Position numbers and translations under genes: made by a program
Part shown: piece by piece, positions 5,924 to 9,372 of the stretch
Numbering within the stretch: the stretch's first letter is position 1
Layout of the letters: every line of letters starts with the position of its first letter
From: Eubacteriales bacterium
Lineage (GTDB): Bacteria > Bacillota > Clostridia > Oscillospirales > CAG-272
Length of the DNA stretch: 61,976 nt
Direction of reading: 5' to 3'
NCBI GenBank assembly: GCA_045643785.1
Contig: JAZRFR010000031.1
Span: 1-61,976 of the forward strand
Notes under the pieces: generated by a model
Database searches by the model: none
Seen by the model: only the letters and a program-made list of their open reading frames with translations
What the model was told of the DNA's origin: nothing

Positions 5924-7123
5924 TCAGGCGCCCGCAGGACGGAAGTTCTCGTAGGTCTTGATATCCGACTCCGAAATGCTGGGCGGAGTCTTCTTGAAGG
6001 CCCGCTCAAACATATCCCGTCGCAGGGGGATGGGGGTACGGCTGTTCTTCTCCTCGATCTCCTCCAGCGCGAAGCGGCAAGCCTCCTCAATGACACCGCA
6101 GAGGTTTGCGGCAGAGTAGTAGCCCTTCTCGGTGAACTCGCCCAACTCGGTGTAGTGGGTAATGTCCCGCTCGGACATCTGCAGAATATCGTCGATGGTC
6201 AGACCGGCCTCCAGCTGGATGCCCTTCAGCTTGCCCTCGATAATGGCGCGCTTGGCAGGCATATCCGGCGGGGGAACGTGTACCAGATGGGAGAAACGCT
6301 TGTAGCGGAGATAGGCCGCGTCAATGATATCGGGACGGTTGGTGGCCGCGATCATGATGCGGTTGTTGCTCTTACCGCCGAAGCCGTTGATGCGCTGCAG
6401 AAGCTCGGTGGTAACGGCGGACTTGTAATCCTTGGTGTCCGAGCTTCTCTTACTGAAGATGGACTCACACTCATCCACGAAAAGCACGGCTCCGTCGGGG
6501 CAGGACTCCAGCTCGTCGAAGATCTGCTTGACGGCCTGCTCGGATTCACCCACGTAGGACTTGAAAATATCCGCAGGGGTGACGATGAACAGGGGCAGAT
6601 TCATGGCGTTGGCGATGGCCTCGGCGAACATGGTCTTACCCGTACCGGGAGCGCCGTAGAGCATCATGCCCAGACCGCCCTGCAGGTGGTAGTACTCCAG
6701 AATATCGGGATTCTGGGCCATGAACATGAAGCTCTTGACCAGCTTCTTGACGCCCTCCAGACCCTTTACGTCATCAAAGGTGGTGGTGGGGATCTTACTG
6801 CTCATAACCGAGCCGTACTCCTTGGCGCGGGCGGCCAGCTTGCGGCTCTCGTCGGCGTAGCGATCGATCTCCTCCTGGCTGACGCACCGCTGGCTCAACG
6901 TAAAGGCGATCTGCGCGGCGTGGGAGTAGTGGGTACGCAGCTCCCGCTTTTCCTCGTCGCGGATATCCTTCTTGTCGTTGCGGCCGTTGAGGATCTTGCG
7001 GATCTTGTTCTTGACTTCCTCGTATTTTACCTTGAGACCGTCAATGGAATCGGCCTCGGGCGCGACGGCGGCATTGGCTGCCTTGGCGGCCTCATCGGTT
7101 GCGTTGGGTTTCGTAATTTTCAT
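5924..7123 (-). CDS. Classic-clade AAA+ ATPase, Vps4/spastin-like, with a helical MIT-like N-terminal domain
   Basis: Walker A GAPGTGKT. Walker B [10 protein letters not shown]. Second region of homology [22 protein letters not shown]. C-terminal [15 protein letters not shown] resembles the Vps4/katanin P-S/T-V-S..DL..Y..F tail. N-terminus ..[36 protein letters not shown] is MIT-helix-like. Start set at ATG 7123 (RBS GGAAGGAG); the ORF track gives 7147. Confidence 0.88.
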   Translation of the reverse strand: [399 protein letters not shown]

Positions 7124-7150
7124 GTCAGGCTCCTTCCTTGATCCCAAGGA

Positions 7151-7897
7151 TTACAGCAGACCGTCCAGACCGCTGTCGCCGCCTGTGGGTGCGGACTTGG
7201 GAGCTGCGGGAGGCGTGTAGGAGCCGCGGCCGGCATTGCCGCCGCCCTGGCCACCCTGGCCACCCTGGCCATCCAGGATACCTCTGACCATATCCATACC
7301 GCGGCCGGCAGCCGAGGTGGAGGAGGTCTGGGACTTCTTGTTCTTGGCGCGGCTCTTCTCGCGCTTCATGTTCATCTTGTCCATGATGCCCGAAATGCTG
7401 CCGCTCATCTTCTCGTACATGCCCGCGGTCTCGGCGGCCATCTCGATGCTCAGCTTCATCTGATCCAGCATGGTCTTGACCGTCTTGCGGTTCTGGGCCA
7501 TGGCCTTCTTCATCATGAGGCGCTGCTTGAAGGGACTGGTCTGGCGGTTGGCCATTTCCATCATCATGCCGCTACTCATTTCCAGCGAGGTATTCATCAG
7601 ATTCATGGAGTGGAAAATAATCTCGTTGGCCACGTTGAAGGCGGTGATCACCTCGATGATATCCTGCATCTGCAGGGAGAGATCCAGGAAGTTGACGAGC
7701 AGGCTGGTACGCCAGTCGTCCTCACCGTATCTCTGGTAGAAATCGGCGGCCTTGGTGGCCAGCTCCTGCAGCTTGGCGTCGAACTCGCGCTTCTGACGCT
7801 CAAACTTCAGCTTCTGCATGCTCTTATCTGCGGCCTGTTGCATTTCCGACACGGCGGAATCGTTGCTCTCAAATTGCTTGAATGCTTGCTTTGACAT
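7151..7897 (-). CDS. Helical protein, candidate ESCRT-III (CHMP2/Vps2-Vps24-like) subunit with a Gly-rich linker and an acidic Leu-rich C-terminal tail
   Basis: AADKSMQKLKFERQKREFDAKL parallels CHMP2A ALNRAMRELDRERQKLETQEKK. MEMANRQTSPFKQRLMMKKA parallels MGTMNRQLKLPQIQKIMMEFE. Met-rich helices, then a GQGGQGGQGGG linker. Terminal GGDSGLDGLL is MIM-like. Confidence 0.6.
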   Translation of the reverse strand: MSKQAFKQFESNDSAVSEMQQAADKSMQKLKFERQKREFDAKLQELATKAADFYQRYGEDDWRTSLLVNFLDLSLQMQDIIEVITAFNVANEIIFHSMNLMNTSLEMSSGMMMEMANRQTSPFKQRLMMKKAMAQNRKTVKTMLDQMKLSIEMAAETAGMYEKMSGSISGIMDKMNMKREKSRAKNKKSQTSSTSAAGRGMDMVRGILDGQGGQGGQGGGNAGRGSYTPPAAPKSAPTGGDSGLDGLL

Positions 7898-7938
7898 AAC
7901 AGTTACCCCTTTTTTTCAATATAGTGGAATATCCAAAA

Positions 7939-9372
7939 TCAAAGGATATCCGAGAGGAGCGTGTGCTCGCTCTCCTGCTTTTCCTCGGCCCCGGTGTCCA
8001 TAGACAGAAGGGCATCCAGAAGGCTTCCCTCCTCCTTCTCCTCCATGGCGGGAAGATTGGCCTCACGCAGCTCCTCGTTCATCTGGTCGACCTCGGCCAG
8101 ACGCTCCTCGATCTTGCGGATGTTCAGATCACCGTTGGTGTTCATGATGCCGCTCTTGACCATGGTCTCCTGGAGCTGGGCGATACCCTCGGCCACCTCA
8201 TTCGAAGAAGCGTTGTTGTTGATGATGCTGACCAGCTTGGAGCAATCCACGTCTGCAAAGATCGCGTAGATGTGCAGACGGTTGTTCTTCACCATGTTGT
8301 ACAGACGGCGGATGGGCTTCTCAATCTTACGAATGAGCTCGCGGCGTCTGGTAACCTCCTCGCGGGAGACCACGTCGGCCTTGAGGCGCTCCATGTCGTA
8401 CTTGATGTAGTCCTCCTGATCCTTCAGATCCTGCAGGTCGAATTCCGCATCCTCGCGGCTCAACGCGCCGCTCTTGAAGCGGGAAACGATGTCCTGCTTT
8501 CTCCGCTCAATGTCACCCAGACGGGCGCGGCACTCACGGAGCTTTTCGGTGGAGCCGTTGTCACGCATATTCGCGGTTTCCTGGGCGTAGATCTCGCAAC
8601 GGTTCAGGAACATTTCTACGTTCTGGCGGATGCTGACACTCTGAATGGTCTGGGCCAGATCGTCCACGGGAATCTCGTAGCAATCCTGGGGCTTGGCATG
8701 ACGGAGAGAGGGCGTACAGAGCTTCGACCACTGACGGACGGTGCGCTGAATGCCTCGCAGCATATCCACCGAGCTTGCGTCGTACAGGCCGTTGGATCTG
8801 GCCAGCTTGATACGCCAGGAGCGGATTCCCGCAACCACCTCGTTGTAATGCTCGGCCGCCTGCATACTGCTCACGTCGATGACGGATTCCAAGGAATCAA
8901 TGATCTCGTCGATGATCTTGCGGCAGGTCTTCATGTTGGTGGCTTCCATGCCGGTCTGGGCATCGCCTGCGCTCTGCATGATCCGCATGCCTTCCTTGGC
9001 GGACTCCAGATAATCCCGCACGTTTTCACACATGTCGAAGGAGGGACGGTGCTCGCGGCCGGTCTTCATGTTGGCCAGGCACTCCCGCTTCTCCACGCGC
9101 AAGCGCTCGTAAGTCAGGGAGCGGCGATTCTCCTCACCCAGCTTGACGGCGATATCCGTCAAATGCTCCAGGGTCTTCTTCATGTCCTTATTGAAATCGC
9201 TGTTGACACCGCGACGGATCAGGGTATCCATATCCCCCGTGATCTCCTCAAACAGCGCGGCTCTGGCCTCATCCGGGAAGCCTCTTTGCAGGGCCGTTGC
9301 AAATTCCTTGTTATACTTGATCTTGTTCGCGTCCATCGCGGCCGTCAAACGAGCTACGGTTTCACGACTCAT
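7939..9372 (-). CDS. Coiled-coil protein whose C-terminal half is Snf7-like (ESCRT-III), with an acidic Leu-rich tail
   Basis: GDLNIRKIEERLAEVDQMNEELREANLP aligns by eye with yeast Snf7 [31 protein letters not shown]. Tail EEGSLLDALLSMD...HTLLSDIL. ATGA overlap with the upstream gene. Confidence 0.55.
   Translation of the reverse strand: MSRETVARLTAAMDANKIKYNKEFATALQRGFPDEARAALFEEITGDMDTLIRRGVNSDFNKDMKKTLEHLTDIAVKLGEENRRSLTYERLRVEKRECLANMKTGREHRPSFDMCENVRDYLESAKEGMRIMQSAGDAQTGMEATNMKTCRKIIDEIIDSLESVIDVSSMQAAEHYNEVVAGIRSWRIKLARSNGLYDASSVDMLRGIQRTVRQWSKLCTPSLRHAKPQDCYEIPVDDLAQTIQSVSIRQNVEMFLNRCEIYAQETANMRDNGSTEKLRECRARLGDIERRKQDIVSRFKSGALSREDAEFDLQDLKDQEDYIKYDMERLKADVVSREEVTRRRELIRKIEKPIRRLYNMVKNNRLHIYAIFADVDCSKLVSIINNNASSNEVAEGIAQLQETMVKSGIMNTNGDLNIRKIEERLAEVDQMNEELREANLPAMEEKEEGSLLDALLSMDTGAEEKQESEHTLLSDIL

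Follow-up and report, generated by a model that had tools for sequence, protein, structure and literature searches.

Does this stretch of clostridial DNA encode a bacterial ESCRT-III pair together with its own Vps4-type ATPase? The question is raised by three minus-strand genes that read in one direction in the window, i.e. the whole stretch of 61,976 nucleotides analysed here (Eubacteriales bacterium, contig JAZRFR010000031.1). They encode an orphan helical protein of 477 aa (hel477; 7939..9372), an orphan helical protein of 248 aa (hel248; 7151..7897) and a single-module classic AAA+ ATPase (5924..7147; 407 aa from the TTG at 7147). A sequence-only reading had taken the helical proteins for a Snf7/Vps2-like pair and the ATPase for a Vps4-like enzyme with an MIT-like N-terminus. 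All strings quoted in that reading, including KLKFERQK, MANRQTSPFKQRLMM, LNIRKIEERLAEVDQMNEELREA, GGDSGLDGLL and SLLDALLSMD..., are present in the translations. As detailed below, the single AAA+ module with a Vps4_C-type helix, the conserved pairing and a peptide tail stand, while ESCRT-III homology and the MIT domain found no support. Absent from that account was the context of the three genes, a cassette of 8-10 genes rich in nucleic-acid enzymes.

The three genes close a conserved operon

The hel477, hel248 and AAA+ genes are real, form a conserved unit and lie at the 3' end of a conserved, uncharacterised 8-10-gene operon in gut Clostridia. The hel477 start overlaps the stop of the gene upstream. 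In nearly every locus examined, including those of the most distant members, hel248 immediately precedes the AAA+ gene, with a gap of 0-30 nt; the exception is L102, which carries one of the most distant hel248 members and where the called genes are ~840 nt apart. This adjacency clearly exceeds chance, and the pairing of a helical protein with an AAA+ gene is conserved across loci. New here are the position of hel248 directly upstream of the ATPase gene and the finding that the two genes close a conserved cassette. One might instead regard the helical proteins as generic coiled-coil fillers unlinked to the ATPase and their ESCRT-III resemblance as coincidental: the matches to CHMP2A, Snf7 and MIT drawn by eye do not exceed chance, and helical low-complexity sequence readily yields spurious matches. 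However, synteny and tight spacing hold down to ~20% identity (L102 apart), and the hel248 family has the conserved motifs YGxxDxxT..FLDV and YGFFxRxKxKR as well as a conserved terminal peptide. Because the hel248-AAA+ adjacency is conserved, this explanation is largely refuted, and we consider it highly improbable.

The order of the cassette is Hsp70-like protein, SNF2 helicase, Cys-rich protein, TM/MBG surface protein, Zn-ribbon protein, hel477, (HExxH protein and Upf1-like helicase), hel248 and AAA+, and all of the cassette genes listed here are on the minus strand of the window. The first gene (19957..21942) encodes a 661-aa protein without a Pfam match, in which the motifs IGLDLGNDT, LVFDMGDE and GGLVET follow one another as in ASKHA proteins and for which DnaK gave the sole PDB profile matches (E=0.21 and 0.44, phosphate-2 region); these weak signals suggest that it is probably a Hsp70/actin-like (ASKHA) ATPase. 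It is followed by a 944-aa SNF2-family helicase (17084..19918; Pfam SNF2-rel_dom, ResIII and Helicase_C), whose homologues are 42-83% identical and occupy the same locus position, and by a 562-aa Cys-rich protein (15418..17106) with several CxxC pairs, a conserved position and no known domain in Pfam or NCBIfam. The next gene (10527..15392) encodes a 1621-aa protein, likewise conserved in position, with several N-terminal hydrophobic segments that, by eye, are probably transmembrane, followed by repeats known from surface proteins (MBG_2 1e-52 over 10 stretches; YDG 1e-19). The fifth protein (379 aa; 9369..10508) has an N-terminal CxxC...CxxC zinc ribbon with weak Zn_ribbon matches, and in every related locus a homologue sits at this place.

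In most genomes, an HExxH protein and a DUF4011 Upf1-like helicase-nuclease are encoded between hel477 and hel248. The full 10-gene cassette is present on single contigs in four loci (L105, L108, L109 and L110), while the window, L004 and L009 have an 8-gene form; the window's variant is missing the HExxH and DUF4011 genes and has kept hel248 and AAA+. The flanking genes vary between genomes, suggesting that the cassette is an island; the DNA upstream of the 661-aa gene is also not conserved between genomes. At the other end, a consensus scan found a hairpin with an 18-bp stem (5867..5906) between the convergent AAA+ and L27A-domain genes, and this hairpin probably serves as a terminator in both directions and would mark the end of the operon.

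An AAA+ ATPase nearest to Cdc48 and Vps4

The ATPase has a Walker A motif (GAPGTGKT, 165-172), a pore loop (KSYVG, 196-200), a Walker B motif (VLFVDE, 221-226), an SRH and a C-terminal helix. An alternative start at ATG 7123 (399 aa), with the ribosome-binding site GGAAGGAG, is more likely than TTG 7147. In agreement with the earlier claims of a single-module classic AAA+ protein and of a Vps4-like C-terminus, Pfam identifies one AAA module (1.6e-32) and a Vps4_C-type helix, which at 27.8 bits exceeds the curated cut-off of 21.3 bits. This type of helix is common to p97 and AFG2 D2 and is, therefore, not Vps4-specific. The best NCBIfam matches are CDC48 (141 bits, 4e-41), PAN (128 bits, 5e-37), CdvC (122.5 bits, 2e-35) and FtsH (116 bits), so that the protein does not group with ClpX; the first three are all far under their equivalog cut-offs (for instance, 803 for CDC48 model TIGR01243, of which only the D2 part is matched, and 650 for CdvC model NF041006).

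Several comparisons place the ATPase slightly nearer to p97/Cdc48 D2 than to Vps4. Its closest PDB matches and best sequence match are VAT and p97 D2 (30% identity, 135 bits), and BLASTP gave 135 bits against p97 D2 and 122 bits against yeast Vps4. Similarly, the SRH segment LRYKRF aligns to LRPGRL of p97 without a gap and to RR--RF of yeast Vps4 with a 2-residue gap, while the C-terminal helix reads IKTYENF, compared to IRKYEMF in p97. By contrast, Cdc48, p97 and VAT have tandem D1-D2 modules and a double-psi-barrel N-domain, neither of which is present in this protein with its one AAA module in ~400 aa. The protein resembles Vps4 and CdvC, which share the single classic AAA+ module, the Vps4_C-type helix and a small helical N-domain; it differs from them in the Cdc48/p97 pattern of the SRH, in the lack of an MIT signal and in a helicase-rich operon of 8-10 genes. 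Altogether, the protein is a classic-clade unfoldase with intact motifs, predicted to thread substrates as a hexamer, and is nearest to the p97/Cdc48 D2 module and Vps4.

The N-domain of ~115 aa is helical, with ~75 helical residues and two conserved loop-like breaks. The proposed similarity to MIT gave no signal in any of the sequence-level comparisons: MIT is absent among the 25 Pfam families listed for 31 N-domains scanned at E<=10, a PDB profile search with the N-domain found no MIT or Vps4 chain, and hhalign against the MIT domain of VPS4B gave a probability of 0.4%, i.e. chance level. The CdvC model aligned only from model position 84, over ATPase residues 105-402, leaving its MIT part unmatched.

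The helical proteins and the ESCRT-III question

None of the relatives of hel248 (43 close homologues; 162 representative clusters) has a Pfam domain. An AlphaFold2 model of hel248 based on 121 sequences (pLDDT 74.4, pTM 0.65) predicts a long alpha-hairpin of helices 8-57 and 62-116, which is confident over residues 11-110 (pLDDT 87-96), followed by shorter helices (126-162), one more short and conserved helix (199-213; pLDDT 89) and then a low-complexity, disordered tail. The family mean net charge is 0 in helix 1, -6 in helix 2, which is hydrophobic as well as acidic, +14 in the middle region and -3 in the tail. At its C-terminus, hel248 ends in GLDGLL, and the family consensus is Φ-(D/S)-D-(I/L)-(L/I/V)-COOH. 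This terminal peptide, which is also new here, is kept behind a low-complexity linker across 121 sequences with a mean column identity of 24%, and its conservation clearly exceeds chance.

Of the suggestion of flexible tails that resemble MIT-interacting motifs, it is borne out that the flexible tail of hel248 ends in a conserved short peptide. MIM1 has the consensus (D/E)xxLxxRLxxL(K/R) and MIM2 is proline-rich. Neither was found in the hel248 terminus, and the conserved peptide has no basic or proline positions. For hel477, 17 close homologues were found and no Pfam domain. Within this close family, SLLDxLL is invariant and the terminus reads DDIL/SDIL; the more distant homologues (in L005, L007, L008 and L001) are without these motifs and retain acidic C-termini. 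Searches of hel477 against the PDB gave no match. The two helical proteins have no detectable relation to each other and are not detectable paralogues.

If the locus were a highly diverged ESCRT-III/Vps4 system, hel248 (perhaps with hel477) would form a membrane filament with a MIM-like tail that is read by an MIT-like N-domain of three helices, and disassembly by the ATPase would remodel or repair a membrane, possibly the one around the TM/MBG protein. The architecture of hel248 fits this reading: a hairpin of ~50 and 55 residues at the N-terminus, shorter helices, a linker and a terminal motif are predicted, as in ESCRT-III proteins, and the gene adjoins that of the ATPase. The Vps4_C helix, the alignment of the CdvC model over residues 105-402, the N-domain with its ~75 helical residues and two breaks, and the membrane protein gene in the same operon fit as well. 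The layout of the hel248 model is compatible with ESCRT-III, yet generic. In Foldseek searches against the PDB, nothing was significant (no match under E=3.4) and no PspA, Vipp1, Snf7 or CHMP1B chain was retrieved. IST1 chains, among them those in IST1-CHMP1B filaments, reached the top probabilities (0.33-0.38); however, these matches had E 4-5 over only 56 columns, while generic coiled-coil hairpins such as p85 iSH2 scored like IST1 and aligned over ~170 columns.

Sequence-based searches do not lend support either. A Pfam scan of hel248 and hel477 at E<=1 gave neither Snf7 (PF03357) nor PspA_IM30 (PF04012), and the 25 Pfam families that matched most of 121 diverse hel248 members (E<=10) include neither of them. 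Likewise, PDB searches by phmmer and hmmsearch, run from profiles as well as from single sequences, returned no ESCRT-III, PspA or Vipp1 chain at E<=10. With hhalign, the helical proteins gave 0.2-1.4% against ESCRT-III/PspA profiles; the CHMP2A and Snf7 alignments made by eye scored 0.2% each, no better than chance, and the highest value was for the hel248 family against PspA/Vipp1. These templates are shallow and insensitive, and can miss real relatives, as the true relatives CHMP2A and Snf7 gave only 3.4% in the control.

Eukaryotic and archaeal ESCRT-III members combine a basic N-terminal core that binds membranes with an acidic C-terminal half that is autoinhibitory. The charge layout of hel248 does not follow this plan: CHMP2A has +16 in its N-terminal and -17 in its C-terminal half, while the polarity in hel248 is reversed, with -6 in helix 2 and +14 in the middle. 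Thus, the proposed homology to Snf7, CHMP2 or PspA finds no support in Pfam, PDB profiles, hhalign or Foldseek, and no computed result shows hel248 or hel477 as ESCRT-III relatives. Together with the lack of an MIT signal, the Cdc48-type SRH, the unrelatedness of hel248 to hel477, a tail that is neither MIM1 nor MIM2 and an operon dominated by helicases, this makes a diverged ESCRT-III/Vps4 system improbable. Within bacteria, a helical-hairpin protein is genetically linked to an AAA+ protein also in the case of PspA/Vipp1/LiaH with PspF in Proteobacteria. However, hel248 has no N-terminal amphipathic helix, and PspF is a bEBP-type AAA+ protein and no unfoldase.

A candidate remodeller in a possible defence-like cassette

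What the cassette encodes suggests a defence-like function directed at nucleic acids. Its helicases are recognised by defence models (PDC-S37 8e-106, Hhe, MkoA, BrxH, DrmD); the SNF2 helicase is matched by the PADLOC models BrxH and DrmD and, under cut-offs, by NCBIfam DrmD (2e-32) and DpdE (4e-29). Moreover, the ATPase resembles IetA of the anti-phage system IetAS (PADLOC IetA models 4e-30, residues 73-326, including part of the N-domain; NCBIfam IteA model 2e-26). However, its score of 93 compares with an equivalog cut-off of 510, and the operon has no IetS serine protease gene and is of other content. As a system, the cassette fits no PADLOC model, and for five of its proteins no defence model gives a match. 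Hsp70-like proteins, SNF2/Upf1-like helicases, coiled coils and Cdc48/SpoVK-like AAA+ proteins are found repeatedly in defence superoperons (PMC11090510). For a nucleic-acid defence system, a large surface protein is unusual. The ATPase, with 65-96% identity across genera, is more conserved than most defence genes.

Based on these data, we tentatively favor a model in which the ATPase, as a remodeller in the style of Cdc48 and Vps4, engages helical partners that carry a tail tag in a defence-like system, although we hold it with somewhat less than even confidence. In this model, hel248 contributes a long coiled-coil hairpin, a very basic middle region and, behind a flexible linker, the terminal Φ-D-D-I-L peptide. 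The ATPase would dock on this peptide, probably via its small helical N-domain, and would then thread or remodel hel248 assemblies, perhaps also hel477 assemblies, thereby activating or silencing the other parts of the machine. Such remodelling would require neither ESCRT-III homology nor membrane scission. The receptor of the tail peptide could also be another cassette protein. That the distant hel477 homologues are without the tail motif speaks against the model.

In its logic, the proposed docking would resemble the action of Vps4 on the tails of ESCRT-III proteins, that of p97 together with adaptors, and the tethering of SspB to ClpX. The likeness to SspB-ClpX would lie in design only, i.e. 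in a short conserved C-terminal peptide that follows a folded domain and a long flexible linker and could dock on an unfoldase N-domain; neither the ATPase clade nor the proteins are related. Equally, hel248 and hel477 are unrelated to the UBX, VIM and SHP proteins that serve p97.

Adaptors such as SspB for ClpX typically combine a folded domain with a terminal peptide on a flexible linker. The same plan in hel248 would also fit a scenario in which hel248 and hel477 are scaffolds or adaptors rather than substrates and the ATPase acts mainly on another client. One such client could be the multi-pass TM/MBG protein, with the ATPase in its extraction, assembly or turnover, as for Msp1, FtsH or p97. 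Alternatively, the ATPase could strip proteins from nucleic acids together with a SprT-like protease and helicases, in the manner of p97 and SPRTN/Wss1. Both the TM/MBG protein and the helicases are conserved members of this operon, the basic segment of hel248 (+14) could bind nucleic acid or anionic lipid, and the HExxH proteins of the 10-gene variant are weakly SprT-like. However, these SprT matches (E 0.014 and 0.058) are under threshold, no finding links the ATPase physically to the membrane, and the 8-gene variant in the window keeps hel248 and AAA+ without the HExxH and DUF4011 genes. We, therefore, regard another main client as rather unlikely.

Returning to the opening question, it is improbable that hel248, perhaps with hel477, forms an ESCRT-III-like polymer, either convergent or too diverged to be recognised by sequence, that the ATPase disassembles via the C-terminal peptide. 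If this were nevertheless true, the locus would represent the first bacterial pair of such a polymer and a Vps4-type disassemblase, and, being tied to a giant surface protein and helicases, this pair would be part of a new envelope-linked machine.

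Three genes at the end of a conserved operon

A run of minus-strand genes in the window ends with three ORFs, i.e. those for a 477-aa helical protein (hel477; 7939-9372), a 248-aa helical protein (hel248; 7151-7897) and, in the last position, a 407-aa AAA+ ATPase (5924-7147). The ATPase probably starts at the ATG at 7123, after a GGAAGGAG site, which would give a protein of 399 aa, and a hairpin with an 18-bp stem (5867-5906) between the ATPase gene and a convergent gene is probably the end of the operon. The sequence-only reading had taken the three genes for a Snf7-like and CHMP2/Vps2-like ESCRT-III pair with a Vps4-like ATPase carrying an MIT domain, and all motifs that it quoted are found in the translations of these ORFs.

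Using ATPase homologues and cassette proteins in other genomes, we identified a conserved operon of eight to ten genes, which is widespread in gut Clostridia, tightly conserved and wholly uncharacterised. In its full form, the order is Hsp70-like protein (661 aa), SNF2 helicase, Cys-rich protein, TM/MBG-repeat surface protein, Zn-ribbon protein, hel477, HExxH protein, DUF4011/AAA_11/AAA_12/MTES_1575 helicase-nuclease, hel248 and AAA+ ATPase. All ten genes are on single contigs at four related loci (L105, L108, L109 and L110), while the window and two others (L004 and L009) have the eight-gene form without the HExxH and DUF4011 pair. The sequence 5' of the Hsp70-like gene and 3' of the ATPase gene varies among genomes. 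Hosts are Christensenella, Borkfalkia and Coproplasma MAGs and one MAG assigned to Roseburia; the ATPase homologues, in Clostridia MAGs, are 65-96% identical. The proposed pairing of hel248 and the ATPase holds in nearly all loci examined. Of the most distant hel248 representatives, one (P0325) belongs to the same cassette, and another (P0316) is flanked by helicase and ATPase fragments on a short contig. L102 has the most divergent cassette that we examined; there, an extra 129-aa helical protein (9601-9990) is encoded between the helicase and hel248, and ~840 nt separate hel248 from the ATPase gene.

At least five cassette proteins lack a significant match to a known domain (hel248, hel477, and the Cys-rich, HExxH and Hsp70-like proteins). 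The Hsp70-like gene, the first of the cassette (window 19957-21942, minus strand), is without a Pfam match; its product is probably Hsp70-like, as suggested by three ASKHA-type motifs (phosphate-1, phosphate-2 and adenosine-like, of the Hsp70/actin type) and by DnaK as its only PDB profile match, albeit a marginal one (E=0.21, 7-sequence profile). In the ten-gene variant, one or two HExxH proteins of ~640 aa (L001 871-4698; L005 2758-4716; L102 3136-5052) carry the zincin motif HECMHALQ and have a weak, sub-threshold SprT-like match; 3' of them is a ~1500-aa DUF4011 helicase, which is Upf1-like and ends in an MTES_1575 nuclease-like region. On the evidence of this weak match, the combination of HExxH protein and ATPase echoes the eukaryotic SPRTN/Wss1-p97 partnership.

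Several genes flank the cassette in the window. The convergent gene that adjoins the ATPase gene (4986-5855, plus strand) encodes a 289-aa protein that has hydrophobic segments at its N-terminus and carries a Ribosomal_L27A (uL15-like) domain (3.5e-12) at its C-terminus. In L005 and L006, the ATPase gene is followed, in the same orientation, by one for a 394-aa L27A-domain protein (11199-12383; 45% identity across 112 aa); the cassette may sometimes include an L27A-domain gene as an additional member. Farther along, an N-acetylmuramoyl-L-alanine amidase (3327-4697, minus strand; Amidase_3, 4e-30), which has a linker of TEAP repeats (TEAPTEAPTEAPTEA) and a hydrophobic anchor at its C-terminus, has ordinary chromosomal genes as neighbours (Dus, HAD hydrolase and OmpR-type regulator). 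Directly upstream of the cassette, two giant minus-strand ORFs of 2121 and 2477 aa (22274-28639 and 28655-36088) have Ig-like and Big_6 domains; we do not count them as part of the cassette because we found no homologues beside it in other genomes. Just upstream of these giant surface-protein genes lies the gene for a 411-aa protein (36665-37900, minus strand), which has a sigma-70 region 4 domain at its C-terminus and may regulate them. Long antisense ORFs, i.e. a 1984-aa ORF opposite the MBG gene (9435-15389, plus strand) and others such as one of 509 aa opposite hel477, appear to be non-coding by-products of genes on the other strand.

A single-module ATPase close to Cdc48 and Vps4

As had been proposed from its sequence, the ATPase combines one AAA module (Pfam, 1.6e-32) with a Vps4_C domain (27.8 bits; curated cut-off 21.3). 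Its NCBIfam scores are 141 bits for CDC48, 128 for PAN, 122.5 for CdvC and 116 for FtsH, each far under the family cut-off, and among solved structures it is closest to the D2 modules of VAT and p97. Its final 116 residues match p97 D2, AFG2B D2, archaeal CdvC and katanin; thus, the C-terminal helix is common to Cdc48-type D2 modules and the Vps4 group and alone is not diagnostic. In BLASTP comparisons with reference sequences, the ATPase scored 135 bits against human p97 D2 (30% identity) and 122 bits against yeast Vps4 (28% identity), and its second region of homology (SRH) aligned gap-free with the former and with a two-residue gap with the latter. Walker A, Walker B, the Y-V pore loop, sensor 1 and the arginines read as intact. 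Because of these domain scores, the SRH alignment and the intact motifs, we regard the protein as a predicted active, single-module unfoldase of the classic clade, with a Vps4-like architecture, yet apparently slightly closer in sequence to Cdc48 D2, a clade assignment that is based on HMM scores, the two pairwise comparisons and the SRH pattern.

By contrast, the suggested MIT homology of the N-domain did not hold up. This domain is helical over ~75 residues, interrupted by two conserved breaks. MIT was absent from the families listed for 31 N-domains in a Pfam scan (E<=10), a PDB profile search returned neither an MIT nor a Vps4 chain, a comparison with the MIT domain of VPS4B by hhalign yielded 0.4%, and the CdvC model matches the ATPase only from model position 84, leaving the MIT part of the model unmatched. 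As judged from these sequence searches, the N-domain is unlikely to be an MIT domain, and we rejected this assignment.

Two helical proteins and the ESCRT-III question

hel248 has 43 close homologues, for which precomputed records list no Pfam domains, and when 1.84 billion representatives were scanned in full with an HMM, 162 clusters were recovered, with lengths of ~215-270 aa save for some shorter, apparently truncated entries. Conserved features are YGxxDxxT..FLDV at the hairpin turn, YGFFxRxKxKRxxxKAxRNN, a lysine-rich stretch, a short amphipathic helix, a low-complexity linker and the extreme C-terminus, Φ-(D/S)-D-(I/L)-(L/I/V). Among 121 members, position -4 is D in 54 and S in 27, -3 is D in 69, -2 is I in 58, and -1 is L in 52, I in 18 and V in 11. 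An AlphaFold model from a shallow alignment reached a pLDDT of 53.6, and its Foldseek matches (BAR, eisosome and designed bundles) were uninformative; it was superseded by a model from the 121-sequence alignment (pLDDT 74.4, pTM 0.65). The latter predicts a confident hairpin of helices 8-57 and 62-116 (pLDDT 87-96); shorter helices (126-162) and one short, confidently predicted helix (199-213) come next, and the tail is disordered. hel477, with 17 close homologues and further distant ones in related loci, has neither a Pfam nor a PDB match, and is not detectably a paralogue of hel248 as judged by hhalign (0.2%). The acidic, Leu-rich tails had been likened to MIT-interacting motifs; what stands is a flexible hel248 tail with a conserved terminal peptide, while the SLLDxLL...DDIL tail of hel477 is invariant in its close family only.

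Could hel248 and the ATPase form an ESCRT-III-type system? The predicted layout of hel248 is compatible with this fold, but carries little information. Foldseek with the deep model gave no PDB match below E=3.4; ranks 4-6 went to IST1 chains, either alone or from IST1-CHMP1B filaments, over 56 columns only, the coiled-coil hairpin of p85 iSH2 aligned across ~170 columns, and none of the PspA, Vipp1, Snf7 or CHMP1B chains was listed. Net charges in the family (helix 1, 0; hydrophobic helix 2, -6; middle, +14; tail, -3) are laid out in the opposite way to CHMP2A. The sequence tests of hel248 were all negative, and Pfam, PDB profile and hhalign searches did not bear out the Snf7/CHMP2-type homology claimed for the helical proteins: hel477 against Snf7 gave 0.2%, and family alignments against CHMP2A and Snf7 sequences gave 0.2-0.7%; direct homology to these two was rejected as evidence. 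Against a PspA profile that combined 80 real PspA genes with B. subtilis PspA and Vipp1 (the E. coli PspA sequence used matched its genomic copies at 100% identity), the hel248 family gave 1.4%, a negative that is not decisive because the positive controls were themselves weak (PspA vs Snf7 37.9%, PspA vs CHMP2A 0.6%, CHMP2A vs Snf7 3.4%; shallow templates, low sensitivity). Because all tests run, save fold layout, failed, we do not assign hel248 to ESCRT-III and consider an ESCRT-III-type system improbable. According to a 2025 review (PMC7619361), an ATPase of the Vps4 type "appears absent in bacteria". If Firmicutes had a true ESCRT-III/Vps4 pair, it would therefore bear on the evolution of this machinery; our analysis does not support such a pair. 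A PSP survey describes VPS4-like ATPases transferred to some bacteria, with a TPR/6TM protein replacing snf7, and occasional PspA/Snf7-AAA+ associations (PMC11237479).

A predicted unfoldase and its proposed tail-tagged partners

Our analysis establishes a gene pair that is strictly conserved and tightly spaced within a helicase-rich cassette and that encodes a Cdc48/Vps4-like unfoldase and a tail-bearing hairpin protein. In the most economical mechanism, the ATPase would dock on the terminal tail peptide of hel248 and then thread or remodel hel248, and perhaps also hel477; the docking, the polymer state and the biological role are what we infer here. This logic resembles that of Vps4-ESCRT-III, p97-adaptor or SspB-ClpX.

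The cassette helicases match defence models (PDC-S37, 8e-106; Hhe, MkoA, BrxH and DrmD) and the ATPase matches the IetA model (4e-30). As these helicase and IetA-like matches are generic and no PADLOC model fits the cassette, we rejected a known defence system; an origin from phages or plasmids was likewise rejected, with hel248 unmatched in the phage collection and the AAA+ ATPase in the plasmid collection. Defence superoperons repeatedly contain Hsp70-like, SNF2, Upf1-like, coiled-coil and Cdc48/SpoVK-like components (PMC11090510).

We describe the system as an unfoldase with tail-tagged partners in an uncharacterised operon. hel248, with its conserved, docking-type C-terminal peptide, and the ATPase make up a concrete and testable unfoldase-partner pair, and the cassette is a candidate new system, defence-like or envelope-linked, in abundant and little-studied gut bacteria.
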